From: a virus
DNA: 42,203 bases
Strand: one strand, 5' to 3'
Virus record (IMG/VR): IMGVR_UViG_3300012837_000001
This document shows, in pieces, positions 22,900 to 40,517 of the stretch (the first letter of the stretch is position 1; every line of letters starts with the position of its first letter). The translations under genes and the position numbers were made by a program. The notes beneath the pieces were generated by a model. That model had not been told where the DNA came from. It saw nothing but the letters and a program-made list of their open reading frames with translations, and made no database searches.

Positions 22900-22949
22900 G
22901 GTTCTGGCTGGAGCCTAGCGGATGCCACCCCATCATCTACTCCCCCCCC
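22900..22949 (+). repeat. Junction element, copy G (long form, inverted relative to the surrounding genes), ending in a C8 tract
   Basis: GGTTCTGGCTGGAGCCTAGCGGATGCCACCCCATCATCTACTCCCCCCCC, between the start at 22889 and the stop at 22937. Confidence 0.8.
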
Positions 22950-23632
22950 GCCCGTAAGGCTGCGGCAATGGCCCTGGCAGCACGCTCGGCGCCACGGCAC
23001 TCCGCCACATGAAGATCGCCGTCATTTTCGAACGCGCGGGCATCTTCGCGCTCTGCCGCCATATCGGCAATGTCTGCGCACCGCTCCCTCTCCGCAGCGA
23101 GCGCGGCTTCTGCGGCTAGGGCGCGGGCTTCGGCGGCATTCACTGCGGAAACAGCGACATCGATCTGTTCGCGCGCCCAGCCTCTGCCCCACTGCGCCTC
23201 CTGCAACTTGATCTCAGTCGCCTCCCGCTTCTTGCGCTCGTCAGCAAGCATCGCGAGCAGCGCTTGGCTGTCCTTGAAGTCGCGGTCCATCCGCTCGCGC
23301 GGCGTCTCGCCCTCCTTCAGATAAGGGGCGCAATCTGTGGCCTCCCGCTCCTTCTCCGCCAGGATCGGGGCGAAGAGGGCCAGAACGGCGCGGGCCATGG
23401 GGTAGACGCGCAGATCGACCCAGGCCCCGCCATAATAGGCTGAGACGCGCGTCTTGGTTTCGTCTTCCTCGACCGTCGTGAAGCCGGTGTTCTCGACGAA
23501 ATGCGCGATCAACGCCCGCGCGATCTCCTCGACCCCCGGCAACTCGGCAGGGGCTTGAAACGCGGGGTGCTCGGGTAGCCGAGCGTCGTGCTCAGCCTGC
23601 ATCACGTCGCGCGGATCCTTCTCACCGGTCAT
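22937..23632 (-). CDS. Hypothetical protein
   Basis: 231-aa ORF whose start overlaps the upstream gene end by 11 nt. The C-terminal half is A/E/R-rich and helical. Confidence 0.65.
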   Translation of the reverse strand: MTGEKDPRDVMQAEHDARLPEHPAFQAPAELPGVEEIARALIAHFVENTGFTTVEEDETKTRVSAYYGGAWVDLRVYPMARAVLALFAPILAEKEREATDCAPYLKEGETPRERMDRDFKDSQALLAMLADERKKREATEIKLQEAQWGRGWAREQIDVAVSAVNAAEARALAAEAALAAERERCADIADMAAEREDARAFENDGDLHVAECRGAERAARAIAAALRAGGE

Positions 23633-23825
23633 GGGTGGCCTCGTCGAGGGCGCGGCTGGAGAGGAACGATTGCAACACAGCGCGCATTCGCTGGCGAGCG
23701 TGACCCAGGTTCGCGGCGGCTTCAGTTATTTGATGCGGCAGCGCGTTCCCGATCTTCTGGGCAGCGCTGTCCATCTCGTCCCACGCCTCGCAAAGCAGAA
23801 GGGTGTCGATCATCTTCTCAGCCAT
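23622..23825 (-). CDS. Hypothetical small protein
   Basis: Starts at MAEKMIDTLLLCEAW... (ATG 23825), preceded by GGAGG and junction element copy A. Confidence 0.55.
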   Translation of the reverse strand: MAEKMIDTLLLCEAWDEMDSAAQKIGNALPHQITEAAANLGHARQRMRAVLQSFLSSRALDEATHDR

Positions 23826-24234
23826 GCTCTGCCTCCGGGGGATTTTTAGAGTGCGCATCCGCGAGTGTCCGAGCTTCCTGAAGAGCGCGCAGGAAGGCGG
23901 CTAGGAGGGCGCGGGCGGGTGACGCTGACACGCCGTCAGCGCGCTTGAGCCCTGCATAGGCGACCGTTCCTTCGGAGCCGCCCTCATTGACAGTGAGGCG
24001 GCACCTCCAACCCGGCAGCTTCTGCTCGATCAGCGAGACGACGGTATCGAGGCTGGCGGTGTACCTGGGCAACCATTTCGGATCGGGGCTGGTGTGGACA
24101 ACGATGTGCTCAGCGCTCACCGACAGCCCCGTCGAGAGGAAGTCGTAGATCACGCCATCAACAACCCGGTCCACGCCCGTGCCGCTTTCGACGCGCTCGA
24201 CCAGATCGTGAGGAATCTCGCGGATGCCAACCAT
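23818..24234 (-). CDS. Hypothetical protein
   Basis: 138-aa ORF. Its start ATG overlaps the upstream TAA (TAATG), and the gene is flanked by inverted junction-element copies. Confidence 0.65.
   Translation of the reverse strand: MVGIREIPHDLVERVESGTGVDRVVDGVIYDFLSTGLSVSAEHIVVHTSPDPKWLPRYTASLDTVVSLIEQKLPGWRCRLTVNEGGSEGTVAYAGLKRADGVSASPARALLAAFLRALQEARTLADAHSKNPPEAEHG
23837..23866 (-). repeat. Junction element, copy A (short form, in gene orientation)
   Basis: The minus strand reads ACTCGCGGATGCGCACTCTAAAAATCCCCC, then GGAGGCAGAGC-ATG. It encodes the tail ...TLADAHSKNPPEAEHG of the upstream gene. Confidence 0.75.
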
Positions 24235-24248
24235 TATTCGCCCCTCCC
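24214..24248 (+). repeat. Junction element, copy H (inverted relative to the surrounding genes)
   Basis: AATCTCGCGGATGCCAACCATTATTCGCCCCTCCC on the plus strand, spanning the 24234 gene boundary. On the minus strand it encodes MVGIREIP. Confidence 0.75.
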
Positions 24249-25190
24249 GGCAGAGGTGGACTGAGACAGGGCGGCGCGGAGAGCGCGACGTTCCAACACG
24301 TCAGTTTCGGGGTCCTTGTCCTCTGGAGCGCAGTCCGCGATCTCGGGACACTGGAGGAAGCCGACGACAATTTGGCGGAGTTCGATGCACTCGCGCTGCA
24401 CATCGAGCAGCATCGAGCCGGCACCATCAGCCATCGCCTTCAGCAGGACCACATCCCCGCCCGCAGTCGAGGAGGCGGGCTTGGCGAGGGCTGGCGTGCA
24501 ATACGGGCACTTCGCCGCGTTGTGATGATTGGTCGGATCGAACCCGAGCGCTTCACAGACCCGCCGCATGTCAGCCTCGCCTTTAGCCTCAGACACGGGC
24601 GTCGCGGCCGGGGAGAGGCTGTCGAGCAATTCAAGGACAGCCTGCGCGGCCTTGGCCTGATTGCGCCAGCCGTAATGCCAGCGTGTATCGTAGGGACGCC
24701 CGAAGTTCTCGCGCGGCTCGGGCCAATTCCCGTCCACGGTTCCGTCGCGCGCAGCGCCTTGGTTCTGGCAGTCGGGGTTCAGGTCTCGGCCCCGGCAGAT
24801 CGCCCTCGCGATTTGCTCGACGGTCGGCTTCACCGCCACCGCACCCACCCCGCCGCTCGCAGGGGCTGGGGCGGAGGCGCGCTTGACGAACCACGTCACA
24901 ATCCGGTTGAGCGAATTGAAGTTGATCGCGCCGACGATCTGGTGACCGGGGTAGAACTCGGGATCGAACTCGTAAGGCTCGGGCGCCCCGAACTGAGCCG
25001 CCTTGACGGCTGAGCCAAGCTCGCTGAAAGGCAACTCGCCGTAAGCGGGGAACGGCACCGCCTCATCGCGCGTAGGGGTGGTCTGGGTCATGGGTGGGCT
25101 CCGGAGAAAATCGGCCAGAGCACCAGGCTCCAAACCACGAGGGCCATCATCAATTCGAACCGGGATGAATTCGGTCGTTCGCTCAGCCAA
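24234..25190 (-). CDS. Hypothetical protein
   Basis: 318-aa ORF from the TTG at 25190 (TGATTG junction). An alternative ATG at 25091 has GGAG 8 nt upstream and is preceded by a degenerate junction-element-like stretch. Confidence 0.6.
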   Translation of the reverse strand: MAERTTEFIPVRIDDGPRGLEPGALADFLRSPPMTQTTPTRDEAVPFPAYGELPFSELGSAVKAAQFGAPEPYEFDPEFYPGHQIVGAINFNSLNRIVTWFVKRASAPAPASGGVGAVAVKPTVEQIARAICRGRDLNPDCQNQGAARDGTVDGNWPEPRENFGRPYDTRWHYGWRNQAKAAQAVLELLDSLSPAATPVSEAKGEADMRRVCEALGFDPTNHHNAAKCPYCTPALAKPASSTAGGDVVLLKAMADGAGSMLLDVQRECIELRQIVVGFLQCPEIADCAPEDKDPETDVLERRALRAALSQSTSAGRGE

Positions 25191-25769
25191 TCACGCATCG
25201 GCCCCATCCTCCCGGCTGCCAGAAACGAGGGCGGCGTGCAGTTCGCGGAGCTGCTTCACTACAGCTTTGCGCCACCCGTAGGTGGATGCGCCAAGGCAGA
25301 TGTTCTCGTGCCCAAGCGGGACAAGCTCAGTCTTCTCATCGTAGGCTTGCAGAAGCATCTCGACCTCCGCCCCTTTCCGCAGTGAGGAGAGGTCGGGGGC
25401 GGGGGATTTTGTGTTGGCATCCGCGAGCACGGCTGGGCCGTTCTCCAGAGCCTTGCGAGCACGGCGAAAGTCACCAGTCGTGATTTCGACGCGGTTGATC
25501 CCGTAGACGGCACGGTCGTCTGGGTCGTTCTCGTGGGACTCGCGCCACTCACCGGGCCGCGTCTCGTATCGGTAGAAATACGAGTTCGCAAGCCGCACGA
25601 ACGGCTCCAGCGCGTCCCTAAGCCTCCCAATCTCTTCCCTCGCCTCCGACAAGGAGAGGGACTGAGACGAGAGGGCGGGCTGATACGAGCGCAGTTCCTT
25701 GGCGGCCTCGGCAGGATCGCAGCCAGCTTCAAGCCAGGCGATAACAGCGGTCAGGTCTGTCCCCCTCAT
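25191..25769 (-). CDS. Hypothetical protein (possibly a fusion of two ancestral cassettes)
   Basis: 192-aa ORF. It contains junction element copy B internally, followed by GGAGG and an in-frame ATG at 25358. Confidence 0.6.
   Translation of the reverse strand: MRGTDLTAVIAWLEAGCDPAEAAKELRSYQPALSSQSLSLSEAREEIGRLRDALEPFVRLANSYFYRYETRPGEWRESHENDPDDRAVYGINRVEITTGDFRRARKALENGPAVLADANTKSPAPDLSSLRKGAEVEMLLQAYDEKTELVPLGHENICLGASTYGWRKAVVKQLRELHAALVSGSREDGADA
25401..25428 (-). repeat. Junction element, copy B (inside a gene)
   Basis: The minus strand reads GCTCGCGGATGCCAACACAAAATCCCCC, translated as VLADANTKSP. Confidence 0.75.
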
Positions 25770-26131
25770 GACCTCTCCCTCCCTTCAGAGAGGGGATTTG
25801 TTGAGTTGGCATCCGCTAGGTTCGTGAGCCCCGCTTTTGCGAGCGCAGCCCTGATTTGCGCGGTGACATTCGCGACGACGCCCGGCTTATAGGCGTCATC
25901 CTCTTCGGCGCATTCGATGTACGGGAGCGCCGTCAGCAGCGCCTCGAACATGTCGGGAGCCGCCGCAATCAGGCGGGCGTTCGCCTCGATACGGTCCATG
26001 GCGTTCGGGGAAGACCCCGGCGTCGCCATGAAGCAAATGCGCCAGTCGTCGCCGGCATGAACGACGAGGCTATCGCCATCGCCGTATTCGCGGACCTCCC
26101 AAGTCCCCTTCGTGCTTGCCCGCTCAGACAT
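25766..26131 (-). CDS. Hypothetical protein with the ANARLIAAAP motif
   Basis: 121 aa. ...EANARLIAAAPDMFEALL... is a motif seen in many small phage proteins of unknown function (from memory). The C-terminal tail NLADANSTNP is encoded by junction element copy C. Confidence 0.65.
   Translation of the reverse strand: MSERASTKGTWEVREYGDGDSLVVHAGDDWRICFMATPGSSPNAMDRIEANARLIAAAPDMFEALLTALPYIECAEEDDAYKPGVVANVTAQIRAALAKAGLTNLADANSTNPLSEGRERS
25792..25820 (-). repeat. Junction element, copy C
   Basis: The minus strand reads CCTAGCGGATGCCAACTCAACAAATCCCC, then ...GGGAGGGAGAGGTC-ATG (25769). Confidence 0.75.
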
Positions 26132-26369
26132 GGGGGGAGGCCTTCGGAAGCGCGGCTTCGAGCTTCTGGATCGTGACGGCGAATTCCTGAGACGTGCCGT
26201 CGTCGTTCCCTTGGATGCAGTCGATGTAGCCGTGGATGACCACAGGGATGCGCATCGACTTCGGACATTTACCGAAGCAGGGGCGGGTCTCGAAATGCTT
26301 GGCGAGAGCCTTGCGGCCCTTCTTCACGTCGAGGATCGCGAAGTCGCTGGTGATCGACCGCTCACCCAT
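26124..26369 (-). CDS. Hypothetical small protein (first gene of the att-proximal operon)
   Basis: 81-aa ORF whose stop overlaps the next start by 8 nt. Confidence 0.55.
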   Translation of the reverse strand: MGERSITSDFAILDVKKGRKALAKHFETRPCFGKCPKSMRIPVVIHGYIDCIQGNDDGTSQEFAVTIQKLEAALPKASPHV

Positions 26370-26661
26370 GGCGAGGGGCCTGGGTGAGAGAGCGGGGTAT
26401 AATTCCGGGTAGAGTTTTTAAGAGGCTTTTCGAGAGGCAAACGACATCAATCGCTTGCCTCTTCTCTTCGGCGGACGCCCTGTCCGCCATCGCACTTTTC
26501 GCCATCATTCGCTCCGTTCCAGAGATAGGCTTGAAAAGGCTGGCAAATTGCGCGGCCGCGCTTCGCTTAGTTTCGCTTGACGCCGCTGCGATCCAGTAGA
26601 TTATCGGGTATCGTCCCGGGTACAGCAAGAGAAAAACCGGGTATCGAACCGGGAATTTGCG
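26370..26661. other. attP-containing non-coding region upstream of the integrase
   Basis: A 292-nt gap next to a P4-type integrase gene. It contains two hairpins/inverted repeats (26434-26461; GGCGGAC-gccct-GTCCGCC at 26470-26488), TTCGC(T/C) repeats, and two 16-mer direct repeats. Confidence 0.6.
26605..26653 (+). promoter_or_regulatory. Two 16-bp direct repeats, CGGGTATCG[T/A][C/A]CCGGG, 33 bp apart and just upstream of the int start
   Basis: cgggtatcgtcccggg (26605-26620) and cgggtatcgaaccggg (26638-26653). Candidate arm-type or autoregulatory sites. Confidence 0.5.
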
Positions 26662-27891
26662 ATGCTGTCCGACGCCGCGATTCGTAAGGCGAAGCCCGCT
26701 GACAAGGGCTACAAGATCACAGACGACGGTGGTTTGCACGTTTTCATCAGCCCTGCGGGCGGAAAATCGTGGCGATACCGCTACGAGTTCGCCGGCAAGG
26801 AGAAGCTTTTGACGCTTGGCCAATACCCGGTCATGGGTCTGGCCGATGCCCGCAAGGCGCGTGACGAAGCGAAGGAGGTTCTTCGCGCCGGACGCGACCC
26901 CAGCATCGCAAAAAAGCAGCGCCGGATACTCGCCGTGCAGCAATCCGCCGAGACATTCGAGGTCGTCGCCCGGGAATGGCACCGCGTCAACAAGTCCCGT
27001 TGGTCGGAAATCCACCAGGCAGACATTCTCGAATCGCTCGTGCGAGATGCCTTCCCGGGTATAGGCCAGTACCCGGTTCGCGACGTGACGGTGGCTGACG
27101 TTCTCGCGGTTCTGCGAGACATCGAATTCCGGGGCGCCAATGAGACGGCCCGGCGCGTTCGCCAGCGAATCTCCAATGTTTTTTCGTTCGCCATATCGGC
27201 GGGCATGGCCGACCGGAACCCGGCCGACACAGTTGCTGGCGCTATGGCGCCCGTCGTCCGCAATCGACAGCCCGCCATCACGAACTTGCTCGAAGCTCGC
27301 AAGATCATGCCAAGATGCGAATTGATGCCGGCTCACCCGTTGACCAAGCTGGCGCACCGACTGCTGGCTCTCACCGTGGTTCGCCCGGGCGTCATCCTGA
27401 ACCTGCCATGGGCCGAATTGCCGCCCGGGGCGGATACATGGGTTATTCCGGCGGCGCGCATGAAGCTGGCCAAGCACATCAAGCAAGCCGGGCAGCGCGA
27501 TCATGTCGTGCCACTTTCTCGCCAAGCCATTGAAGTGATCGAGGCAGCCCGTACGATGTCTGGCCTTGGCCCCCTCGCCTTCCCCAATTACCGGAATGCG
27601 CACCGGCCGATGACCGAGGGCGCGATGCGCCTCATGCTGACCAAAGCTGGGTTTCAGGATGAGCATGTTGCCCATGGGTGGCGCTCGACTTTCTCGACAG
27701 TGATGAATGAACTCTACCCGGGCGATCGGCACATCATCGACCTGATGCTGGCGCATAAAGCCAAGGACGAAGTGGAAGCGGCCTACAACCGTGCTCTGCA
27801 CCTTGGCCGTCGCGCCGAGCTGGCGCAGCTATGGGCCGATCTCATTTGTCATGGTCTACAGCCGGCGGCGAACTTGCTGCCGGCCCGTTAG
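26662..27891 (+). CDS. int: Tyrosine integrase, P4-type (DUF4102 N-terminal domain)
   Basis: The N-terminus LSDAAIRKAKPADKGYKITDDGGLHVFISPAGGKSWRYRYEFAGKEKLLTLGQYPVMGLADARKARDEAK is the canonical P4-integrase arm-binding domain. The C-terminal ...HGWRSTFST...LAH...Y catalytic residues are present. Confidence 0.95.
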   Translation: MLSDAAIRKAKPADKGYKITDDGGLHVFISPAGGKSWRYRYEFAGKEKLLTLGQYPVMGLADARKARDEAKEVLRAGRDPSIAKKQRRILAVQQSAETFEVVAREWHRVNKSRWSEIHQADILESLVRDAFPGIGQYPVRDVTVADVLAVLRDIEFRGANETARRVRQRISNVFSFAISAGMADRNPADTVAGAMAPVVRNRQPAITNLLEARKIMPRCELMPAHPLTKLAHRLLALTVVRPGVILNLPWAELPPGADTWVIPAARMKLAKHIKQAGQRDHVVPLSRQAIEVIEAARTMSGLGPLAFPNYRNAHRPMTEGAMRLMLTKAGFQDEHVAHGWRSTFSTVMNELYPGDRHIIDLMLAHKAKDEVEAAYNRALHLGRRAELAQLWADLICHGLQPAANLLPAR

Positions 27892-28088
27892 GACGCTTTC
27901 GCGTCGAGCGTAGCGATCCACGCATCAATCTCGGATTCCCGCCACCGTACGCAGCGGTCGGAAAGCTTGATCCCTTTCGGGAACTTGCCGAGCTTGATCA
28001 GCTCGTAGATCCAGGTGGTGCCGAGCGAGGTTTTCTTCTTGACCTCGGGCAACGCGAGAAGACGATCCGACATGACAGCCCTACTCAT
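27888..28088 (-). CDS. AlpA-family excisionase / transcriptional regulator
   Basis: LLALPEVKKKTSLGTTWIYELIKLGKFPKGIKLSDRCVRWRESEIDAWI matches the Phage_AlpA winged-helix signature. Start at ATG 28088 (alternative 28073). Convergent 4-nt overlap with int. Confidence 0.85.
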   Translation of the reverse strand: MSRAVMSDRLLALPEVKKKTSLGTTWIYELIKLGKFPKGIKLSDRCVRWRESEIDAWIATLDAKAS

Positions 28089-28156
28089 GGTGAAGCCGGG
28101 GAATTTGAGTTGGCATCCGCGCACTTCCGGCCAGAACCTACCAGCGGCGCGCTCAT
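28085..28156 (-). CDS. Unlisted 23-aa mini-ORF (MSAPLVGSGRKCADANSNSPASP) made almost entirely of junction element copy D
   Basis: It has ATGA overlaps at both ends, with the AAA+ stop and with the AlpA start. Translation is unproven. Confidence 0.3.
   Translation of the reverse strand: MSAPLVGSGRKCADANSNSPASP
28098..28138 (-). repeat. Junction element, copy D (long form)
   Basis: The minus strand reads GGTTCTGGCCGGAAGTGCGCGGATGCCAACTCAAATTCCCC, then GGCTTCACC-ATG (AlpA). Confidence 0.8.
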
Positions 28157-29431: not shown

Positions 29432-29456
29432 GGGATTTTAGGATTGCGGCCCACGG
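29432..29456 (-). repeat. Degenerate junction-element-like sequence upstream of the AAA+ start
   Basis: The minus strand reads CCGTGGGCCGCAATCCTAAAATCCC, then GAGAGAACAG-ATG. Only the A-rich/CCC half is well conserved. Confidence 0.35.
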
Positions 29457-30028: not shown

Positions 30029-30414
30029 CCGAGCCTCCGAGGTGGCATTTGCTTGGCGATGGGTGAGGATGCGCGGCGCTGCGGAGGCGGCTTCCGAAAC
30101 CCAGCGCTCTGGATTTTCGTGCGGATGCCGAGATGCCCGGCTTCCTGGCGCTTGGCCTTGGCAATGGTCGCCACGTCCTGAGCGGTCTTCCCGCCCGGCG
30201 CGCGGTGGCAGCAATCGCGGCCAAGGGCCTTTCCGTCATCGATCGTCAGCGGCTTCGTCTTATCGACGATCAGAGCTTCGGGAATGGTGTGATCGAACTC
30301 GACGACCTTGCCGGTGATGTTGAGGCCGCAACCCTCACACCAGATGAGACCTTGCGCATCCGAAGCGCGCTTGAGCATCTGGGCTTTCTGGGAGCGGGAG
30401 AACTCGCGTCTCAT
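30025..30414 (-). CDS. HNH endonuclease
   Basis: CEGCG...VEFDHTIPEAL...DCCHRAPGGK fits the HNH Cys-His box pattern. Start at MRREF (ATG 30414), ATGA-coupled. Confidence 0.6.
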   Translation of the reverse strand: MRREFSRSQKAQMLKRASDAQGLIWCEGCGLNITGKVVEFDHTIPEALIVDKTKPLTIDDGKALGRDCCHRAPGGKTAQDVATIAKAKRQEAGHLGIRTKIQSAGFRKPPPQRRASSPIAKQMPPRRLG

Positions 30415-30872
30415 AGATGCCTCCAGCGAAGTCCACATCGGATTTTCGAGATGCACCCCTTGGACACGCCAAACTTGGCCATCAGCGCCTTGAGGTCCGG
30501 GGCTGCTGACCTGATCTCGGCAACGTCCGCCTCTGTTAGTTTAGCCCTTCCGCTCCGTTCACCCCGGTTGTGGGTGCCATGGATGAGCTTGTCCGCTACG
30601 TTCTCAGCCGGGGTTGCCCAGCGAACATGCCGGGGATTGACGCAAACCGGCCTCCCGCACCTATGGGCGGCCTCATGCCTAGGGGTCGGCGGCTCTCCGT
30701 GCGCCAAGATGCACATCCAGCGATGCGCCCGCTTCTGCACGCCGCCGATGACGGCAAGGCCATACCCGGCCGGCACCACGCGGTAGGGCCAATTCAGGCA
30801 TTCGTCGCTCTGATGGTCGACGTGGGCGCGAAGGAAGGCTTCGCTTGATCCTTTAGGGGCGATGCGCTTCAT
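30411..30872 (-). CDS. HNH_3-type homing-endonuclease-like protein with a C-terminal HTH
   Basis: ...GYGLAVIGGVQKRAHRWMCILAHG...AAHRCGRPVCVNPRHVRWATPAENVADK is the typical HNH_3 pattern. Start at MKRIAPK (ATG 30872), ATGA-coupled. Confidence 0.75.
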   Translation of the reverse strand: MKRIAPKGSSEAFLRAHVDHQSDECLNWPYRVVPAGYGLAVIGGVQKRAHRWMCILAHGEPPTPRHEAAHRCGRPVCVNPRHVRWATPAENVADKLIHGTHNRGERSGRAKLTEADVAEIRSAAPDLKALMAKFGVSKGCISKIRCGLRWRHL

Positions 30873-31264
30873 GCTGCCCTCGCTTCGTCGCCAAAGGTGA
30901 CGCCGTTCTGTGCGCCCCAAGCCAGAATGAACTCGATCAAGTCGGTCATTTCCTGCTTGGACAGATCGGATGAGGATTGCCCCCAGGGGAGGAACGTCGA
31001 TCCGTCGAGAGACGGGACGAACTGAACCTCACGCCCGCAAGCGTGCATGAACAGAACCTTCCACTGGTCCGGCGTGTAGCGTCGCCCAGCGTGCTCTTTC
31101 TGACGGGAAACCTCCGTCAAAAGGCTCCACATCATATCGTTCTGCGGAAGACTGCGCTTGCTGGCCTTGAACTCGCATCGGGTGCCATGCGGGGCCTTCA
31201 TGACCCACGACGCGGCGCGCTGGCGGGCCACCGGGCTGTCGAGGACGACGAGGGCGCGGCTCAT
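30869..31264 (-). CDS. NinB-like recombination-associated protein
   Basis: KASKRSLPQNDMMWSLLTEVS resembles the NinB/Orf-family RSL.QN..w motif. Start at MSRALVV (ATG 31264), ATGA-coupled. The longer track ORF is an upstream extension. Confidence 0.5.
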   Translation of the reverse strand: MSRALVVLDSPVARQRAASWVMKAPHGTRCEFKASKRSLPQNDMMWSLLTEVSRQKEHAGRRYTPDQWKVLFMHACGREVQFVPSLDGSTFLPWGQSSSDLSKQEMTDLIEFILAWGAQNGVTFGDEARAA

Positions 31265-31971
31265 TCCGCCGCCTCCTGACGGGCCTCTGGCAGCTCGCGG
31301 TATCGGGCGGCAGCCAAGGTGCGGATGACAGACGCCTCGTCTTCGCCAAGCTTGCGCTTCAGCTCGTCGGCGTTGTCTGTCATCCAAGCGCCAAGGTCGT
31401 CCTTGGTCTTGGCGAGTAGCATGACGGAGCGGTACGTCTCGCCAAGCTGCGTAAGGGGCGCGACCGTACCGCTGGAAGTGCGAGGAACAGCGGGGGTCGC
31501 GTTCCGGCCGGTGGGCGCGGAACTGGAATTCTTCACCTTGGACCATGGGTCCTGCGTCCAGCGCTTCCAATGGCGCTTGCCGCCGCGCTCATAGCTCTCG
31601 CAGTCGACCCAAGGGCTATCGAGGTCGTAGAGATAGCGACCGATGCCCCAGCGAACCGCAGCCCGCTTGAAAGCATCCGAGAGCGCGCCCTTTTCGGCCT
31701 CGATGTCGCTGTCGCCAGCACCGTCAGCCTTCCAGATCCATTCCTCCCCTACGCGAATGCCGATCTCGCAGACCGTCTTGCCGTTGGCGTGCGGGTAGCG
31801 GCACTGCCAGCCCTCCGGGCCAAGCACGTCGTCAAGCCGGTTCATCACGTCGCGGGCATCGATGTACGCCAGCGCCATGGCGGCGGTGCCGTCCTGCTTC
31901 AAGGACTGAGCGCGCCAGGAGATGGCATTGCGCGGGAATTCGGACCTGAGCTGTTCGAAGATGGTCATCAC
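31261..31971 (-). CDS. Rad52/Sak-type single-strand annealing protein
   Basis: ALAYIDARDVMNRLDDVLGPEGWQCRY...EKGALSDAFKRAAVRWGIGRYLY is the Rad52_Rad22 family signature. Confidence 0.8.
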   Translation of the reverse strand: MMTIFEQLRSEFPRNAISWRAQSLKQDGTAAMALAYIDARDVMNRLDDVLGPEGWQCRYPHANGKTVCEIGIRVGEEWIWKADGAGDSDIEAEKGALSDAFKRAAVRWGIGRYLYDLDSPWVDCESYERGGKRHWKRWTQDPWSKVKNSSSAPTGRNATPAVPRTSSGTVAPLTQLGETYRSVMLLAKTKDDLGAWMTDNADELKRKLGEDEASVIRTLAAARYRELPEARQEAAE

Positions 31972-32474
31972 TTCACCCTGACGGTGAGGCGCGATCCGCC
32001 ATTGCTGACGACGACGCCGGGGATTTCCTCGCCAGCCTTCACGGCGGCGTTGATGGCGGTCTTGTCGATCTCGCGCTTGATGCGGATGAACCGCTCGGGG
32101 ATCGAAGCTTCGTCCTCGATGACGACCGAGGGGCCAGCCTGGGTGACCGAGATGGTCGCATTCGGCAGCGTGACCTTCGACAGCCCGGCCGCCGCCATGA
32201 CGCGCTCGATCGCCTCGCCATAGCCATCGCCACGACGCTCCAGGCGCGCCTTGCGCTCTCTCAGGTCGCTGACAGGGACCTTGACGCCTTCGGCCATCGC
32301 ATAGGCTGCCTCACGCTCCTGAACGAGCTTGGCGAGGACGTTGTTGATGTCCGTCTCGCCTTCGAGGGTATCGGCGCGAAGGTTCTCGTCTTCCTCAAGC
32401 TCGGGATAGACGGAGAGGAGGTCGGTGATCTCGCGAACGACGCGGAAAACAAGCTGCGGGTTCATCGCCGTCAC
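31968..32474 (-). CDS. Siphovirus Gp157-like protein (recombination module partner)
   Basis: Size and pattern (DTLEGETD...coiled region...SIPERFIRIKREIDKTAINAAVKAGEEIPGVVV) are typical of the Gp157 family. GTG start. Confidence 0.6.
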   Translation of the reverse strand: MTAMNPQLVFRVVREITDLLSVYPELEEDENLRADTLEGETDINNVLAKLVQEREAAYAMAEGVKVPVSDLRERKARLERRGDGYGEAIERVMAAAGLSKVTLPNATISVTQAGPSVVIEDEASIPERFIRIKREIDKTAINAAVKAGEEIPGVVVSNGGSRLTVRVK

Positions 32475-34157: not shown

Positions 34158-34169
34158 GGCGCGAGCATA

Positions 34170-34242: not shown

Positions 34243-34250
34243 ATGAGCCT

Positions 34251-34454
34251 ATGTCACCTCTTCTCGCATACCGTGCTCTCAACGAGCTGACGCTTCAGGG
34301 CCTCGCCGCCAAGATCGGCACGAGCCCCGGCTATCTGCATGACCTTGAGAAGGGACGCCGCAAGCCGTCGCCCCGCCTCGTGCTGGCTATCGAGAAGGCG
34401 ACGGGCATCCCGCGTCACACGCTGCTACCGGAAATCTTCGGGAGGGCAGCATGA
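34251..34454 (+). CDS. Cro-like HTH regulator
   Basis: MSPLLAYRALNELTLQGLAAKIGTSPGYLHDLEKGRRKPS is an XRE-type HTH. First gene of the rightward operon. Confidence 0.8.
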   Translation: MSPLLAYRALNELTLQGLAAKIGTSPGYLHDLEKGRRKPSPRLVLAIEKATGIPRHTLLPEIFGRAA

Positions 34455-34708: not shown

Positions 34709-34709
34709 C

Positions 34710-34805: not shown

Positions 34806-34808
34806 GCC

Positions 34809-34892
34809 ATGACCCCCTATCGCTTCATGCTCTTCGTCGCTGCTTGTCCTGTCGCGCTCTATCTGCATCGGCTTTTCGAGGTGTGGGCATGA
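34809..34892 (+). CDS. Unlisted 27-aa hydrophobic peptide (MTPYRFMLFVAACPVALYLHRLFEVWA)
   Basis: Starts 3 nt after the previous stop, and its stop overlaps the next ATG (ATGA). Confidence 0.3.
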   Translation: MTPYRFMLFVAACPVALYLHRLFEVWA

Positions 34893-35821
34893 AGGGCGTC
34901 CGCATCTCGACTGAGAATGCCGAGGTAGCTCGCTCGATGCGAGCTTCCGGCGCACTTATCAAAGACATCGCGCTTTGCACGGGAACGAGCCAAGCGTGGG
35001 TGAGCAAGGTTACGAAAGGCATTTCGCCAGGGCAGCGCTCCAGATTTCGACATCTCAACCAGATGGATGTCGGAGGCATTGTCAGAGGCCTTGTGAGTGC
35101 CGGAATAGGTGACAGTGAAGTCGCTTCCCGCCTCGGCATCTCCAGAAGCTTCGCGAGCTTTCTGCGGAGAAAATACTGCGGTCTGAAGCCCGCCTTCGCG
35201 GTCGACATTAGCATGGTCCGCTCCATGGCAGAGCACGGCGCGGGCACCACCGAGATCGCAGAAGCGATAGGCGTCTCGCCGTCCTTTGTTGGGAATATAA
35301 AGCGTGCCGCCGGCATGCGGCCTGCCCAACAAATATCGAAAGGGCGCCGATCCGCCCGGCCGCTTTTGCCGCTCTTGGTCTACGCGCAAACCTACATCTC
35401 CTATGACGCCGAAACTGGTTTGTTTTCCCGTTCTGGGAAGACGATTGGCTTCGAGAAGAATGGGTACGCCCGCGTTGCAGTGCGCGGCCGCGTCGTCATG
35501 GGGCATCGGCTCGCTTGGCTACTCCACTATGCGGAGGAGCCGCCGGAGCTAATTGACCATATCGACGGCAACCCGCTGAACAACGCTGCGGGCAATCTGA
35601 GAGCCTGCAGTACATCTCAAAACGCCTTCAACAAAAGGCGCGCTTCCAACAACACGACCGGGGTTAAAGGCGTCTCGCAGGGCGCCGATGGTTATTACCG
35701 AGTTCGCGTTCAGGCCGGGCGTCTGGCAGTCCACTGCCATGCCAAGACCTTGGAAGAGGCTCGCGAGGCGCGCCAACGCCTCGCGGCTTCGTTGCATGGG
35801 GAGTTCGCTCGCCATGATTAG
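34889..35821 (+). CDS. HNH_3 endonuclease with an AP2 domain and three tandem N-terminal HTH-like repeats
   Basis: GYARVAVRGRVVMGHRLAWLLHY...IDHIDGNPLNNAAGNLRACSTSQN (HNH_3), then NTTGVKGVS...GYYRVRVQAG...HCHAKTLEEAREAR (AP2). N-terminal repeats: ...IKDIALCTGTSQAWVSKV / ...DSEVASRLGISRSFASFL / ...TTEIAEAIGVSPSFVGNI. Start at MKGVRIS (ATG 34889). Confidence 0.7.
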   Translation: MKGVRISTENAEVARSMRASGALIKDIALCTGTSQAWVSKVTKGISPGQRSRFRHLNQMDVGGIVRGLVSAGIGDSEVASRLGISRSFASFLRRKYCGLKPAFAVDISMVRSMAEHGAGTTEIAEAIGVSPSFVGNIKRAAGMRPAQQISKGRRSARPLLPLLVYAQTYISYDAETGLFSRSGKTIGFEKNGYARVAVRGRVVMGHRLAWLLHYAEEPPELIDHIDGNPLNNAAGNLRACSTSQNAFNKRRASNNTTGVKGVSQGADGYYRVRVQAGRLAVHCHAKTLEEAREARQRLAASLHGEFARHD

Positions 35822-36370: not shown

Positions 36371-37033
36371 ATGAGCAGAGTCTACTTCATCCTCAACGAT
36401 CGTGGCTTTGTGAAAATCGGCTTCACGAAGGGGAACGCGATCGGCCGAATGAAAGAACTCCAAACCGGGTCGGCTGACCAGTTGCAGTTGCTCGCCGTAG
36501 TTTCCGGCGACGAAACGCTTGAGCGCCGACTGCATGCTGCATTCGCAGAGCGCCGGCTGACAGGCGAATGGTTTGATTTTTCAGACGGTTTGGCGCCTCT
36601 GACGCGCGAACTAGACCGCCTTGAACTAAAGACAGAGGTTCAGAAGAGTTCCGCACGCTTTGAGCCGTCTCGCTCTGTGCTTCAATGCGCGGAATGGCTC
36701 AACAAGTGCTGTTCCCATCGTTCAGTTTACCATGACCAAGGGGCGGACGACGCCCTCCTGTTCATTGCTGGCGAGCTTGGCACGGGGGTTGGCACGGTTG
36801 CCAATATCGTCCGTCGACGGGTCGCATCGGTTGATGCTGACATCTACCTAGCGATACGCGACCTCCGCCTTGAATATATTGAGCGTGAGATTGAATTGCT
36901 CGATGCGGAGCATAGCCGCCTCGCCTCGCTAGAATGCGACGGCAACCGGCCCGACGCGTCAGAATTGCTGGCTCTTCAGAAGACCCTTCAGGCCGTCCGG
37001 GAAGGACTGGCGCGAATGAGGGGGCAGCCATGA
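36371..37033 (+). CDS. T5orf172 / MUG113 (GIY-YIG-related) domain protein
   Basis: VYFILNDRGFVKIGFTKGNAIGRMKELQTGSADQLQLLAVVSGDETLERRLHAAFAERRLTGEWFDF is the T5orf172 pattern. Confidence 0.7.
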   Translation: MSRVYFILNDRGFVKIGFTKGNAIGRMKELQTGSADQLQLLAVVSGDETLERRLHAAFAERRLTGEWFDFSDGLAPLTRELDRLELKTEVQKSSARFEPSRSVLQCAEWLNKCCSHRSVYHDQGADDALLFIAGELGTGVGTVANIVRRRVASVDADIYLAIRDLRLEYIEREIELLDAEHSRLASLECDGNRPDASELLALQKTLQAVREGLARMRGQP

Positions 37034-38182: not shown

Positions 38183-38991
38183 TGAGCCGCTGGTTTCGCC
38201 ACTACGCCGGCCTCTGCCGCGACGACAAGCTTGTGAGCGCTGCGATCAAGGCAAAGCAACCTGTCGAGCGCGTTGTGTGGGTCTGGTGCGCCATCCTCGA
38301 AAGCGCTGCGGAGATCGATGACAATGGACGATACGAACTGGACACCGCCGAGGTCGCCTACTTTCTTCGAGCGGATGAGGCTGACGTTGTCCGCGTTGTC
38401 GAGTGCCTGGGACACATGGGCCGACTTGATGCGGGTTCTGTGGCTAAGTGGTGCGACCGTCAGTTTCAGTCGGACCGCTCCGCAGAACGCCAGAAACGTT
38501 ATCGTGACAGGCGAAAACAGGCGCAGGGGGACACTCCTGACCGTCACCAGAACGGAGAAGTGACGTCACCGTCACGTCACGGTGACTCACCAGATACAGA
38601 GACAGAAACAGATATTCAGTTAGCTGACGCTAACTGCCGGCCTGAGCCAGCGCCGAAGCCGGCCGTTTCTCTCGTCGATCAGCTTTGGACCGATGGAATC
38701 CTGACGCTTGAGACGATGCACGTCGTGCCGCCGAAGGCCCGCAGCATGGTTGGCAAGTGGCTGAAGGACACCGGCAGCGACGCCGGACGCGTCCTGTGGG
38801 CGATCAACGAAGCGTCCATCCACGGCAGCGGCGATCCCATCCCCTACATCGCCCGCGTCTTGTCGGATCGTCCTACCGGGCCTCCTCCCCACCGCCAAGC
38901 CAAACCTAACTCTCTCCTCGAAGGCCTGGAAGAAATCGAAAACCTGAGGTTCGGCAACAATGTCCAGCCATTCGCCCGCATCGCAAACTGA
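38182..38991 (+). CDS. Putative replication organiser / initiator (two domains joined by an acidic linker)
   Basis: Starts at MSRWFRHYAG (ATG 38182). The C-terminal ...GRVLWAINEASIHGSGDPIPYIARVLSDR resembles DnaD/replisome-organiser C-termini. The linker region contains the iteron cluster. Confidence 0.45.
   Translation: MSRWFRHYAGLCRDDKLVSAAIKAKQPVERVVWVWCAILESAAEIDDNGRYELDTAEVAYFLRADEADVVRVVECLGHMGRLDAGSVAKWCDRQFQSDRSAERQKRYRDRRKQAQGDTPDRHQNGEVTSPSRHGDSPDTETETDIQLADANCRPEPAPKPAVSLVDQLWTDGILTLETMHVVPPKARSMVGKWLKDTGSDAGRVLWAINEASIHGSGDPIPYIARVLSDRPTGPPPHRQAKPNSLLEGLEEIENLRFGNNVQPFARIAN
38541..38636. promoter_or_regulatory. Candidate origin of replication inside the replication gene
   Basis: Five GTCAC/GTGAC pentamers in 38560-38586 including the palindrome GTGACGTCAC (38560-38569), plus another GTCAC at 38543-38547. 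Next comes an A-rich ACAGA x3 stretch (38591-38619) and a perfect 8-bp palindrome, CAGTTAGC-tgac-GCTAACTG (38617-38636). Confidence 0.5.
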
Positions 38992-39418
38992 GGCCACCAA
39001 CGCCCTGAAGCCGCTGTTCGTCGCCTATCCGGCAGAGCGCGGCAACGGCATGGGCGGCGCCGCGACCTACCTCATGGCCGTTGAGGGCTATTCCCTCCCG
39101 GCGATCCAGAAGGCGGTGACGCGGCTCATCCGTGGCGAGTTCGACTGGTTCGGAGGCCGGTTCCTGCCGACCACGGCCGAACTGTCCCGCGCCTGCCGCT
39201 ACTGCGAGGACTTGCTCGCCCCGCCGAAGCGCCTGGCACTGCCTGCGCCCGGCGATGTCGAGCCGACCGAGGACAGCAAGCGCCGCGTGGCTGACATGGC
39301 CCGCAACTGGTCGGATCGCGCGGTTCCCTCGCCCTACGACGAATACGACGCCTGGCAGAAGGCTCGTGCGGAAATCCCGTCAGGCCTGCCCCAGAACAAG
39401 GGAGAGCGCGCGGCATGA
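38960..39418 (+). CDS. Hypothetical protein
   Basis: 152-aa ORF that overlaps the upstream gene by 32 nt. Confidence 0.5.
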   Translation: MSSHSPASQTEATNALKPLFVAYPAERGNGMGGAATYLMAVEGYSLPAIQKAVTRLIRGEFDWFGGRFLPTTAELSRACRYCEDLLAPPKRLALPAPGDVEPTEDSKRRVADMARNWSDRAVPSPYDEYDAWQKARAEIPSGLPQNKGERAA

Positions 39419-39852
39419 GTGTCGGTCGTCGAGGATTTCTCAGGCTGCTCGCTGCTGCTCCTGTTGCGGTGCCTGTGGTCGCGCGAGAAGCTGCTCAGAA
39501 GGCCGGGCTGAGCGCTGATGCTGCCGGCTCGATCTATGATCAGGCTGCCAAGAATTATGGCGGCCCGTTTGCAACCGGCTCAAGTGGGCCTGACCCCGAC
39601 TGGTGCAGAAGCTGGGCAAAGCGCGTTTTCTCCCAGGATTGGGTTGACCAGACGCGTCGGGAGATCGGTCGCCGGCATCCTTGGCCGCTAGACCCCGATC
39701 TAGCCGCCTCGCGCAGCCTGTCGCTTTCGGCGGCCATGCGCATTCAGCGCGAGCGCAATATCGCGAAGGAGATCGACCGCGAGCAGAGCGCTGCACGCGA
39801 GCAGTTCTTCAGGGCGCTCGGATTCCATTTCGATGCGGGAAGCGCGGTATGA
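39415..39852 (+). CDS. Hypothetical exported protein with a twin-arginine (Tat)-like signal peptide
   Basis: The N-terminus MSVGRRGFLRLLAAAPVAVPVVAREAAQKA fits the (S/T)RRxFLK motif plus an h-region and an AxA-like site. Confidence 0.55.
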   Translation: MSVGRRGFLRLLAAAPVAVPVVAREAAQKAGLSADAAGSIYDQAAKNYGGPFATGSSGPDPDWCRSWAKRVFSQDWVDQTRREIGRRHPWPLDPDLAASRSLSLSAAMRIQRERNIAKEIDREQSAAREQFFRALGFHFDAGSAV

Positions 39853-40031
39853 AGGCCTCCCGAAAGGTTGAAAAGACCAAGGCTCCTCCTGGCTGCATGC
39901 GTTTCGAGCGGCATACGGCGTCGGACGCGGCGGCTGCAAAGCTCCGCAAGCGCGCCATTGCCGAGCGTCTGAAAGGTTCTGGCAGTCATCTCGCGGATGC
40001 CACCCCAAAATCCAACCCCAGAGGGCAGTAG
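39849..40031 (+). CDS. Hypothetical small basic protein ending in the junction-element tail
   Basis: MKASRKVEKTK...ERLKGSGSHLADATPKSNPRGQ. ATGA-coupled start. Confidence 0.5.
   Translation: MKASRKVEKTKAPPGCMRFERHTASDAAAAKLRKRAIAERLKGSGSHLADATPKSNPRGQ
39975..40019 (+). repeat. Junction element, copy E (long form)
   Basis: GGTTCTGGCAGTCATCTCGCGGATGCCACCCCAAAATCCAACCCC, then AGAGGGCAGTAGC-ATG (40033). Confidence 0.8.
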
Positions 40032-40032
40032 C

Positions 40033-40149
40033 ATGAGATGGGGTGACTTCAGCCGCAGCGCTTACAATGGGCGTTGGCTTTCGGTGCACTCGTTTCTGCA
40101 TCGCTGGCTTCTATCAGATTTGACCACCAACGGCAGGAGCGGAAAATGA
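40033..40149 (+). CDS. Unlisted 38-aa ORF (MRWGDFSRSAYNGRWLSVHSFLHRWLLSDLTTNGRSGK)
   Basis: Starts 2 nt after the upstream stop and 13 nt after copy E. Its stop overlaps the next ATG (ATGA). Composition is not clearly protein-like. Confidence 0.25.
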   Translation: MRWGDFSRSAYNGRWLSVHSFLHRWLLSDLTTNGRSGK

Positions 40150-40517
40150 AGGTCTATCGGCTCGACGAGTTCCGTAAGCTGCCTGAGGGGACGCTGTTCT
40201 GCGAATGCGAGCGGTGGGTGTTCGGCACGCTCCACGTCAAAGGTGAGACATGGGAGCGCGACTTCCTGCTTCGCGACCTCCAGAGCATCGACGCGGAAGA
40301 CAGTGGCGAATGGGGCCGCCGTCTTGATGAGATGCTTGAGAGCGGCGCGAGCTACCCCATCAATGGCGATTACGGGCGTGACGGGTCTTTCAATGAGAAT
40401 GCCCTGTTCCTCGTCTACGAGCGCGAAGACCTGTTGGAGCTACGGCGCACAATAGACGAGGCGCTGGAAGGTTCTGGCCGGAATCTAGCGGATGCCACAA
40501 AGAAAGACACCCCATGA
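40146..40517 (+). CDS. Hypothetical protein ending in the junction-element tail
   Basis: Starts at MKVYRLDEF (ATG 40146, with GGAGCGG upstream). C-terminus ...EGSGRNLADATKKDTP. Confidence 0.6.
   Translation: MKVYRLDEFRKLPEGTLFCECERWVFGTLHVKGETWERDFLLRDLQSIDAEDSGEWGRRLDEMLESGASYPINGDYGRDGSFNENALFLVYEREDLLELRRTIDEALEGSGRNLADATKKDTP
40470..40513 (+). repeat. Junction element, copy F (long form)
   Basis: GGTTCTGGCCGGAATCTAGCGGATGCCACAAAGAAAGACACCCC, directly abutting the ATG at 40514. Confidence 0.8.

Follow-up and report, generated by a model that had tools for sequence, protein, structure and literature searches.

The window, that is, the whole 42,203-nucleotide stretch of viral DNA analysed here (IMG/VR record IMGVR_UViG_3300012837_000001), contains eight copies of a short motif, all of which lie between 22.9 and 40.5 kb. 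The exact core GCGGATGCCA was found seven times, on the plus strand at 22918, 24220, 39993 and 40488 and on the minus strand at 25415, 25807 and 28111, against 0.26 copies expected, and seven or more copies were reached in 0 of 100 shuffles. The eighth copy has the variant core GCGGATGCGC at 23853-23862 on the minus strand, a variant found again in relatives. In four copies (22900, 39975, 40470 and, on the minus strand, 28130) a GGTTCTGGC box lies exactly 9 nt upstream of the core. The region from 1 to 22.3 kb contained no copy, its sole match being a chance one with one mismatch. An earlier note on this DNA had proposed a junction element with eight clear copies, an upstream box common to four of them and absence from the ~22 kb structural and lysis half, and each of these claims holds, as does enrichment over shuffled controls. 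The degenerate copies that it placed at 29432 and 25092-25124 were not detected by a profile built from ~48 copies, and have only tail-like bases in common with the motif. The features of the window are as follows.

22899..22950, plus strand: copy G, full motif, inverted relative to the minus-strand genes; core 22918-22927; C-run overlapping the 22937-23632 gene at its end
23827..23871, minus strand: copy A, direct, with the variant core at 23853-23862; C-terminal tail (..RTLADAHSKNPPEAEHG) of the gene at 23818-24234, overlapping the start of the next gene
24208..24244, plus strand: copy H, inverted, without the GGTTCTGGC box; core 24220-24229
25401..25428, minus strand: copy B, direct; core 25415-25424; inside the ORF at 25191-25769
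25792..25826, minus strand: copy C, direct; core 25807-25816; tail of the gene at 25766-26131
28085..28156, minus strand: 23-aa mini-ORF MSAPLVGSGRKCADANSNSPASP, which reads copy D in the usual frame
28098..28139, minus strand: copy D, full motif, direct; core 28111-28120; between an AAA ATPase gene and an AlpA-like gene
30869..32465, minus strand: candidate recombination machinery, comprising NinB/Orf (30869-31264), a Rad52-type annealase (31261-31968) and Gp157 (31968-32465)
39973..40015, plus strand: copy E, full motif, direct; core 39993-40002; tail of a 60-aa gene at 39849-40031
40003..40487, plus strand: cassette between copies E and F, made up of the E tail, a short ORF, the gene at 40146-40517, and the F box and spacer
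40469..40512, plus strand: copy F, full motif, direct; core 40488-40497; tail of the gene at 40146-40517

Copy H, read on the mRNA strand, gives GGGAGGGG, with a TAATG stop/start overlap and the N-terminus MVGIRE of the gene at 23818-24234. The stop TGA of the gene ending in copy C overlaps the ATG of the gene at 25191-25769, ATGA overlaps join the mini-ORF to the AAA ATPase stop and to the start of the AlpA-like gene, and a further ATGA overlap at copy F joins its gene to the one at 40514-41104. The C-terminal tails in a common frame, the two inverted copies with the N-terminus MVGIREIP and the 23-aa mini-ORF (28156-28085, minus strand) were all as the earlier note had described them. Its statement that every copy sits at a gene boundary is correct for all except the copy at 25415, which lies inside an ORF where two domains are fused that relatives encode as separate genes. 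The integrase of the phage has arm repeats of its own, unrelated to the motif.

Approximately 73 non-redundant copies were collected from ~35 related contigs, and the carriers, which include prophages of Bosea lathyri and Bosea sp. ASV33 and the isolated phage Pam5, form a family of temperate phages whose hosts are Bosea-like bacteria of soil and water. Among 80 phages that have a related terminase, together 1.03 Mb, 78 were without the motif, and a search of 185,579 species genomes gave only four real matches, none of them in host chromosomes outside prophages. The motif is thus confined to one phage lineage.

The motif is 28-45 bases long and consists of two boxes, AGGTTCTGGCCGGA-NN-CTCGCGGATGCCA, followed by an A/C-rich tail that is poor in G over ~25 nt. 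The copies have a fixed polarity, with the GGTTCTGGC side always toward a variable gene body and the tail toward a stop/start junction. Among 44 direct copies 38 share one frame with the upstream gene, mostly ending in an ATGA stop/start overlap, and the next start follows at a variable distance of 16 to 49 nt from the motif. Inverted copies lie at the 5' ends of genes, where the ATG is 0-8 nt from the core, the motif forms the first codons and the C-run becomes a purine-rich ribosome-binding region.

The wobble bases of GAT, GCG, GCC and GGC never vary, and four-fold degenerate codon positions are fixed in ~60 copies, beside two random positions between the boxes; GAT is invariant despite GAC being the expected codon at 62% G+C. 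Some 40% of the 73 copies are inverted relative to the genes, and these are translated in three different frames. Selection therefore acts at the level of nucleotides and not of the peptide, as had been suggested from the window alone. The conserved frame of the direct copies, together with the Ala retained by the variant core GCGGATGCG, could also be read as a peptide, GSGxxLADA(T/N)xxxP, kept as a tag for degradation or targeting that the phage AAA ATPase, for instance, might read. This reading is largely refuted already by the fixed synonymous positions, by the inverted copies, which are read in three frames or untranslated, and by direct copies placed beyond a stop codon, and we consider it highly improbable.

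An element acting in the mRNA, for translation coupling or processing, with recombination as a by-product, would agree with the shared frame and the ATGA overlaps. It could set termination-reinitiation at stop/start overlaps that have no ribosome-binding site, or inverted and direct copies around a gene pair could form dsRNA for cleavage or control of initiation. Many downstream starts do have C-rich leaders without a ribosome-binding site, and the G-poor tail and the short distance from core to ATG in inverted copies point the same way. Fifteen genes are enclosed by inverted pairs able to form duplexes of 13-30 bp, and in the consensus fold GGUUCUG is paired to CGGA(U)GCC, where the sole box changes (U to C) turn G-U into G-C pairs. 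However, the folding energy was no better than that of shuffles (z ~0 on both strands), compensatory changes were not seen, and in both coding uses the U-to-C changes are synonymous as well. For the ~40% of copies that are inverted the RNA would be a different one, in which A-C mismatches replace the G-U pairs. The motif also stands at no constant distance from the following start, stop/start overlaps are the general rule throughout these operons, motif-free junctions included, and a search of Rfam gave no family matching the motif. An mRNA function is accordingly regarded as rather unlikely. The motif as a promoter or a stable RNA hairpin was rejected, with no promoter match and no stable hairpin.

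Comparison of the 40-nt flanks of the copies revealed that flanks reassort at the motif. The tail-side flank only was common to 47 pairs of copies, the box-side flank only to 5 and both flanks to 2, one of the latter being a chance non-motif match inside a homologous gene, giving 52 informative pairs with one flank in common and 1 with both. Junction islands, comprising motif, tail, ribosome-binding site and ATG, fall into families whose members are 90-100% identical, yet the genes to either side of them are unrelated. In the relative L007 a single junction consists of the left half of copy E and the right half of copy F, and the cassette at 40003..40487 is absent; the window therefore has one extra gene between two direct copies. 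Another relative, L179, has ~1.4 kb extra between copies B and C. Among the three options offered earlier, short homology blocks that permit cassette shuffling best fit this reassortment and the cassette indel exactly between two copies.

Adjacent copies at most 700 nt apart were divergent, with tails outward, in 15 cases, tandem in 6 and convergent in none. Each of the 15 outward-facing pairs encloses a single gene, and genes lying within motif pairs show no relationship to one another, an arrangement also expected if the motif were the terminal inverted repeat of small one-gene mobile cassettes (miniature transposons) with the transposase supplied in trans. Against this, within a cassette the arms resemble each other no more closely than random copies do, the likeness stopping with the 13-28 nt motif, and every tail goes with its own junction family. 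The outer ends are not sharp and no target duplication is evident, many genes have a single copy only, no transposase gene was found, and the four matches among species genomes leave host chromosomes outside prophages without the motif. The case for such cassettes is already weak, and we judge them very unlikely.

The explanation that we tentatively prefer, at somewhat less than an even chance, is that the motif is a lineage-specific, DNA-level cassette-junction adaptor for accessory-gene exchange, probably through the phage Rad52 and NinB proteins. Its GGTTCTGGC side is fused to the variable body of an accessory gene, and its G-poor tail runs into the stop/start junction of the neighbouring gene; at a gene 3' end, a direct copy in the one frame makes the upstream ORF stop on or next to the following ATG. 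One and the same adaptor is found on many genes, otherwise unrelated, in many phages, so that single-gene swaps would be possible with operon translation intact. We infer that recombination between adaptors, or between longer islands that hold them, leads to insertion, deletion or replacement of single genes, the likely catalysts being the Rad52-type annealase and NinB, which are encoded in the window together with Gp157. Rad52-like recombinases, acting on short diverged homologies, drive the formation of mosaics (PMC3945230), and in T4-type phages conserved intergenic cassettes mediate gene shuffling (PMC2839356). If the adaptor explanation is correct, the motif marks points of gene swapping between phages.

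Several observations weigh against the adaptor explanation. The median uninterrupted identity between two copies, in the part common to all, is ~13 nt, and the 23-27 bp required for efficient Red-beta pairing is present in only 2.4% of pairs from different contigs; generic motif-to-motif homologous exchange should therefore be inefficient. A partner with at least 23 nt in common exists for 40 of 72 copies, and exchange would be easier within one island family. A clean indel between two copies turned up just once, long alignments show only a weak excess of ends at the motif (4 of 68 against 1.5 expected), and selection for exchangeability is a second-order effect that is hard to prove. Two near-invariant boxes around two random positions also look like a site read by a protein, a pattern that plain homology would not be predicted to give. 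It may be that a sequence-specific protein of phage or host recognises the motif, either a dispersed-site regulator in the manner of stoperators or the C1 operators of phage P1, or a nuclease or nickase that starts cassette exchange. The ~28 bp site is asymmetric and bipartite with fixed spacing, its core is intact in 27 of 29 copies when the first box is used as anchor, and its use in either orientation fits recognition of double-stranded DNA. Long bipartite sites are also what modular homing nucleases typically recognise. Among the proteins encoded in the window are HTH+HNH_3, HNH_3, T5orf172 and GIY-YIG proteins and a two-HTH DnaA-C-like protein; the HNH and GIY-YIG-type genes are candidates for the nuclease, whose action would be a step upstream of the adaptor reading and not a replacement for it. 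However, the immunity region (~33.6-34.3 kb) has no copy even at one mismatch, no protein is common to most motif-bearing contigs (the best cluster was found in 6 of 24, these being partial contigs), and relatives of the HNH protein also occur in motif-free phages. A phage with eight targets for its own double-strand nuclease would be at risk, and the polarity and reading-frame rules are left unexplained. A protein recognition site is considered possible, though unlikely.

Linker or boundary sequences belong to the modular theory of lambdoid phage evolution of Susskind and Botstein, and were reportedly described in the nin region by Clark et al. in 2001. Like the motif, these are short conserved stretches at gene borders that join unrelated genes and at which homologous recombination can act, and the lambdoid phages also encode Rad52-type and NinB functions. 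The motif differs in being one bipartite sequence reused at many junctions of a single genome and throughout a whole lineage, in both orientations, with near-invariant boxes that are unexpected from homology alone. The promoter-early stem-loops (PeSLs) of T4-type phages (Arbiol et al. 2010, PMC2839356; PMC4122927) are likewise short conserved repeats between small non-essential genes in hypervariable regions, where they bound insertions, deletions and replacements between relatives, and they resemble the motif in being portable signals for expression that also serve as substrates for recombination. A PeSL is non-coding and combines a sigma-70-type promoter with a terminator stem-loop in one orientation, whereas the motif, found in temperate phages of alphaproteobacteria, has no promoter match or stable hairpin, is usually translated as a C-terminal tail or N-terminus, and is found in either orientation, always with the same polarity relative to the gene body.

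The start-associated sequences (SAS/ESAS) of cluster K mycobacteriophages (PMC3203893), which the earlier note had named as the closest analogy, are also asymmetric repeats limited to the non-structural half and placed by genes of different families. The analogy fails, as the SAS is a 13-bp sequence, GGGATAGGAGCCC, which includes the Shine-Dalgarno core and is placed 3-7 bp ahead of the start codon in essentially one orientation. In the motif a Shine-Dalgarno core is lacking, the spacing to the following start is 16-49 nt, ~40% of copies are inverted and the sequence is for the most part coding. Integron attC sites share the association of a recombination-linked repeat at the gene end with promoterless single-gene cassettes. 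In attC it is structure that is conserved, as a folded single strand in one orientation that needs the IntI integrase, whereas the motif is conserved in sequence, with no stable fold and no IntI. Stoperators include an operator at the early promoter and are biased in orientation relative to transcription. The motif was rejected as a stoperator, having no copy in the immunity region, a 60:40 split of orientations and a distribution limited to two accessory regions. Stoperators, to which the immunity repressor binds at places throughout the genomes of cluster A mycobacteriophages, do share with the motif a 13-bp asymmetric core repeated at many gene junctions, and the repressor that reads them is a two-domain monomer, a plausible model for how a bipartite asymmetric site may be read (PMC9283540, PMC6550527).

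The 10-mer core of the motif, GCGGATGCCA, was found in seven exact copies in the 42.2-kb window, compared with 0.26 in dinucleotide-preserving shuffles, and none of 100 shuffles reached seven. When one mismatch was allowed in the core, 11 matches were obtained against 6.8 in shuffles, a difference that was not significant, so the signal resides in the exact core. The element that the earlier note had described at gene junctions was therefore enriched over shuffled sequence, and the motif finding is real and specific. The eight copies in the window are:

22918, 24220, 39993 and 40488, plus strand, exact core GCGGATGCCA
25415, 25807 and 28111, minus strand, exact core GCGGATGCCA
23853-23862, minus strand, eighth copy, with the core variant GCGGATGCGC

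In four of the window copies the sequence GGTTCTGGC was located exactly 9 nt upstream of the core. Two further "degenerate" copies, proposed in the earlier note at 29432 and about 25100, were missed by a profile built from 48 motif copies and were not counted.

The last 123 nt of the window (42081-42203) exactly repeat nt 1-123, indicating that the window is a circular assembly of approximately 42,080 bp. It represents a metagenomic phage genome, and the same phage was also present in ERZ27245283 (k141_50888) and SRR6474761. The main features of the genome are:

1-22.3 kb, plus strand, packaging, head, tail and lysis genes
22.4-33.6 kb, minus strand, gene block including AlpA-like, AAA ATPase, HNH_3, NinB, Rad52 and Gp157
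26662-27891, plus strand, P4-like integrase within the 22.4-33.6 kb block
~33.8-34.5 kb, repressor/cro pair
3′ of the repressor/cro pair, plus strand, early genes (GapR-like, HTH-HNH, T5orf172, DnaA-C-like HTH, resolvase-like, GIY-YIG)
30411-30872, minus strand, HNH_3, homing-endonuclease-like
34889-35821, plus strand, HTH+HNH_3, homing-endonuclease-like
36371-37033, plus strand, T5orf172/MUG113, homing-endonuclease-like
41524-42093, plus strand, LEM-3-like GIY-YIG, homing-endonuclease-like

Every copy in the window lies between 22.9 and 40.5 kb, confined to two accessory regions at 22.9-28.1 kb, beyond the attachment site and integrase, and at 39.9-40.5 kb, where the rightward operon ends. 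The genes of these blocks are small; they match no Pfam family and lack homologues in relatives. Four homing-endonuclease-like genes are contained in this single 42-kb temperate phage, and none of them adjoins a motif copy. Strong hairpins resembling intrinsic terminators are located at 41172-41198, ~41490-41520 and 22443-22474, at the end of the rightward early operon and downstream of the lysis genes; relatives retain the first two as short islands. Between the repressor-like and cro-like genes, which are called as a divergent pair, the gap is only 6 nt (34244-34251), too short to hold a promoter or operator, so that one of their start codons has probably been miscalled.

The 73 non-redundant copies gave the consensus (A)AGGTTCTGGCCGGA-NN-CTCGCGGATGCCA-(A/C)C.CAAAATCCCC, in which the ~25 nt 3′ of the core are nearly free of G. 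In about a third of copies the first box is missing or is present in a second version, GGCTCTTGGGGA. To avoid circularity, conservation of the core was scored by anchoring on the first box, which revealed an intact core in 27 of 29 real copies and near-random bases at positions -5 and -4, showing that the boxes are under purifying selection and that the copies are old. Four-fold degenerate codon positions are among the invariant bases, and GAT is fixed although GAC is preferred at 62% G+C. These fixed degenerate positions, together with the presence of copies inverted relative to the local genes, rule out a purely peptide-level constraint, consistent with the nucleotide-level function argued for in the earlier note. 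In a few relatives (L003, 5967-6014; L016, 1329-1378) two copies overlap head to head on a palindromic centre, GGTTCYGGCCRGAACC, giving a near-perfect palindrome of ~44 bp, TGGCATCCGC..GGCC..GCGGATGCCA.

Several known signals were compared with this consensus and rejected. The RNA hairpin predicted from the motif, a bulged 7-bp stem containing two G-U pairs, shows neither covariation nor compensatory changes and is as stable as shuffled sequence; Rfam and tRNA scans gave no match. The inverted strand contains TTGGCA with no usable -10, and inspection of the consensus in both orientations identified no -35/-10 pair of a sigma-70 promoter. The TGGC-N8-TNGC spacing fits a sigma-54 promoter, but the core persists in copies that lack the first box, the invariant bases run well past -12 and the 40% of copies that are inverted would fire antisense. 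A CcrM site was present in the spacer of only ~30% of copies, and partial resemblances to the 16S rRNA 3′ end, DnaA boxes, ops and the CsrA GGA motif were not conserved.

The orientation of the 73 copies relative to the local genes was assigned by codon-usage scoring of the flanks, giving 44 direct and 29 inverted copies, a ratio of approximately 60:40. Direct copies sit at the 3′ ends of genes, and in 38 of the 44 the motif is in the frame of the upstream gene and encodes ..GSGxxLADA(T/N)... The stop codon of this ORF lies on or adjoins the next start, mostly as ATGA, with the next ATG 16-49 nt 3′ of the core. Intergenic direct copies can form a bridging mini-ORF of their own, as in the window:

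28156-28085, minus strand, mini-ORF with ATGA overlaps to the AAA ATPase stop and the AlpA-like gene start

Inverted copies sit at the 5′ ends of genes, where the C-run reads on the mRNA strand as a purine-rich ribosome-binding region and an ATG, GTG or TTG is positioned 0-8 nt before the core. The inverted motif then supplies the first codons in any of the three frames (MxGIRE.., MWHPR.., xASASVRPEP) or is untranslated. In both orientations the GGTTCTGGC side is on the gene body and the tail is on the junction. When pairs of copies sharing a 40-nt flank were examined, the tail side alone was common to 47, the box side alone to 5, and both sides to 2; one of the latter was non-motif sequence, so that sharing was one-sided in 52 of 53 informative pairs. 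Neighbouring copies no more than 700 nt apart pointed outward around a single gene in 15 cases and were in tandem in 6, with no inward pair. The flank-sharing and neighbour-orientation counts both support a fixed polarity of the motif.

The genes contained between motif pairs are mutually unrelated. Most accessory proteins of the window have no detectable homology to those of relatives, and at their borders are islands of 30-70 nt that are 90-100% identical. The island families comprise the core, tail, ribosome-binding site, ATG and up to ~13 codons, with different genes on either side. Islands of 30-70 nt, 90-100% identical to relatives in which the flanking genes are unrelated, also make up many other gene junctions of the window (23616-23655, 25055-25102, 26105-26147, 26358-26390, 39389-39421, 40502-40538 and 41464-41536), where C-rich leaders of the CCCCATGA type, lacking a ribosome-binding site, often precede the starts. 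The related contig L007 contains a homologue of the window gene at 39849-40031 followed by a single hybrid motif, the left half of which corresponds to copy E of the window and the right half, with the downstream leader, to copy F. Compared with L007, the window therefore contains an additional cassette flanked by two direct copies, and from this one hybrid junction we infer that crossover would have taken place within the linker. In contig L179 the interval from copy B to copy C is ~1.4 kb longer than in the window and includes a further copy. The window ORF at 25191-25769 (minus strand) is a fused ORF: copy B lies at the joint between two parts, each a gene in its own right elsewhere, and residues ~40-124 and 117-189 match separate genes in L052 and L009. 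On sequence comparison the motif acts as a joint in a mosaic. The coincidence with breakpoints that the earlier note had proposed to test was clear at the L007 junction and weak for the ends of long alignments, 4 of 68 of which fell at a motif compared with 1.5 expected, the long alignments being too few.

Sites of mobile elements were also considered for these junctions. Cassette arms share the generic motif alone, with no defined ends, and no target duplications were found, so that transposon ends were rejected. A mimic of a tRNA 3′ end or attP core was ruled out on reading of the sequence. Integrase arm sites were likewise rejected, since the repeats on the attP side, CGGGTATCG..CCGGG, are unrelated to the motif. 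These repeats are found in the 290-nt gap adjoining the integrase gene:

26395-26414, 26605-26625 and 26638-26653, probable arm-type attP repeats, CGGGTATCG(T/A)(C/A)CCGGG

The distribution of the bipartite pattern was determined by exact scans, which identified it in 17 IMG/VR viral contigs and ~20 metagenome contigs. A scan of 185,579 species genomes gave four real loci, in Bosea lathyri, Bosea sp. ASV33, a Rhizobiales isolate and one MAG, each with copies clustered within a few kb in a phage-like arrangement; the Bosea genomes provide the related prophages in which the earlier note had suggested looking for the motif. The remaining matches were due to chance, having neither a tail nor adjacent copies, and the scan excluded a host-wide repeat. 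One of the four loci, L057, has the same motif copies as L012, a viral contig from IMG/VR. Among cultured phages the motif was present only in 'Pseudanabaena phage Pam5' (ON014757.1, our L210), which has one full direct copy per early arm:

36940-36982 of Pam5, plus strand, full direct copy
26009-26049 of Pam5, minus strand, full direct copy

These copies are not mentioned in the paper on Pam5. The Pam5 genome has 63% G+C, a GcrA-like gene and NinB, and the phage, in its non-axenic system, always occurred alongside Pam1; that Pseudanabaena is its host seems doubtful. The motif was absent from 78 of 80 phages (1.03 Mb) with a terminase 47-86% identical to that of the window, and it therefore tracks a host- or early-region-linked gene pool and not the virion module. 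No close cultured relative was found by megablast, which matched only 258 bp of a gene from a Caulobacter phage, and relatives sought via the proteins of genes 24234-25190 and 21208-21771 were only phages sharing short domains, all lacking the motif. Across the contigs and genomes scanned, the motif is evidently a property of a phage lineage and extends beyond the window genome.

The best-supported reading of the motif is a cassette-junction adaptor. A short shared adaptor with fixed polarity toward the gene body would join whichever gene becomes attached and would keep operon translation intact across gene swaps. Recombination genes in the window include a Rad52-type annealase, NinB/Orf, Gp157 and a resolvase-like protein, and Rad52-like recombinases are known to generate mosaics where homology is short and diverged (PMC3945230). 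A model of homology alone fits less well: between two arbitrary copies identity is uninterrupted for a median of only 13 nt, and only 2.4% of inter-contig copy pairs reach the 23-27 bp quoted for Red-beta; within island families a partner sharing at least 23 nt was present for 40 of 72 copies. The window copies share only 10-15 nt among themselves, which should guard the genome against self-deletion.

The main rival is that the motif is a site recognised by a protein, whose action may precede the exchange as an earlier step in it, and its invariant boxes, two free positions between them and fixed spacing have the look of a site read by a macromolecule. However, the largest gene cluster was present in 6 of 24 motif-bearing contigs, partial contigs being compared; relatives of the HNH proteins also occur in phages lacking the motif, the early genes of the terminase relatives are unrelated, and the 33.6-34.5 kb immunity region containing repressor and cro has no match to the motif with up to one mismatch. 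A weak lead for a motif-linked factor is provided by one early gene, homologues of which were found, among the 80 terminase relatives, only in the motif-bearing L124 and L131, and in addition in L015:

35936-36370, plus strand, 144-aa ORFan with no Pfam or PHROG match

Less probably, the motif could mark a dedicated enzyme-driven cassette system. An integron-like arrangement, in which a phage enzyme would cut or nick a 28-bp bipartite site and Rad52/NinB repair would swap genes in frame, is considered rather improbable. Candidates for such an enzyme would be the HTH-HNH, GIY-YIG-type or T5orf172 proteins or an uncharacterised protein; single accessory genes would be inserted, deleted or swapped, and the adaptor would secure translation of the captured gene.

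How single genes are swapped without damage to an operon is an old question, for which Botstein's linker model competes with random illegitimate joins followed by selection. The lineage described here is an unusually clean natural case, with one reusable, oriented adaptor at many junctions around which gene bodies are exchanged and both the reading frame and stop/start coupling are retained. It is directly testable, as cultured lysogens (Bosea lathyri DSM 26656) and the isolated phage Pam5 exist. Should the site be read by a protein, the phages would have a viral cassette system of a new kind, which might also become a tool for in-frame gene capture. The motif is a simple handle for mining cassettes in metagenomes, the cassettes being candidate anti-defence or host-takeover genes.

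When the motif was compared with known systems, it was found not to belong to the SAS, stoperator, PeSL, attC or REP families. The start-associated sequences (SAS) of cluster K mycobacteriophages are 13-bp elements, GGGATAGGAGCCC, with an AGGAG Shine-Dalgarno core 3-7 bp before the start and an essentially single orientation (PMC3203893). This analogy, offered in the earlier note, did not hold, as the consensus AGGTTCTGGCCGGA-NN-CTCGCGGATGCCA has no AGGAG, the ATG follows the core by 16-49 nt or precedes the motif if inverted, and copies are divided between 44 direct and 29 inverted. Stoperators of cluster A mycobacteriophages match the operator of the immunity repressor at the early lytic promoter, follow the direction of transcription and are bound by this repressor, which blocks elongation, while the motif has no match at 33.6-34.5 kb with up to one mismatch and is split 60:40. 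The attC site of integrons is an imperfect palindrome (R''-L''/L'-R') with extrahelical bases, folded in single-stranded form, and needs an IntI-type integrase and an adjacent attI; the motif has no stable fold, with a palindromic GGTTCYGGCCRGAACC centre in some copies only, and the sole integrase of the window is P4-like with an arm-binding domain. REP and MITE repeats are spread over the host chromosome and have defined terminal inverted repeats and target duplications, whereas the motif occurs at just 4 loci in 185,579 genomes and its cassette arms share the generic motif alone, with different tails.

Of the systems described so far, the PeSL cassette of T4-type phages comes closest (PMC2839356). 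PeSLs contain a strong sigma-70-like early promoter and a terminating stem-loop, whereas none of five promoter-like sites at 22.2-42.2 kb is at a motif copy and the motif folds no better than shuffles (z = 0.15 forward, 0.33 reverse), with no T-run on the sense strand. PeSLs cluster in hypervariable regions among small, non-essential genes; the motif is likewise concentrated in accessory regions of small genes, and indels or replacements are bounded by the repeat, as in the L007 hybrid, the 52 of 53 one-sided flanks and the extra DNA of L179. It also resembles linker or boundary sequences in being a conserved short sequence where independently assorting segments meet. By analogy, the motif would work most like a recombination joint of the linker/PeSL type. 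A literature search with the motif strings returned only unrelated matches, such as CRISPR-like repeats of Paraburkholderia, and given this and the silence of the Pam5 paper the motif appears to be previously undescribed. It differs from linkers and PeSLs in that it is translated, reversible and of fixed polarity, and is built on an invariant bipartite core.
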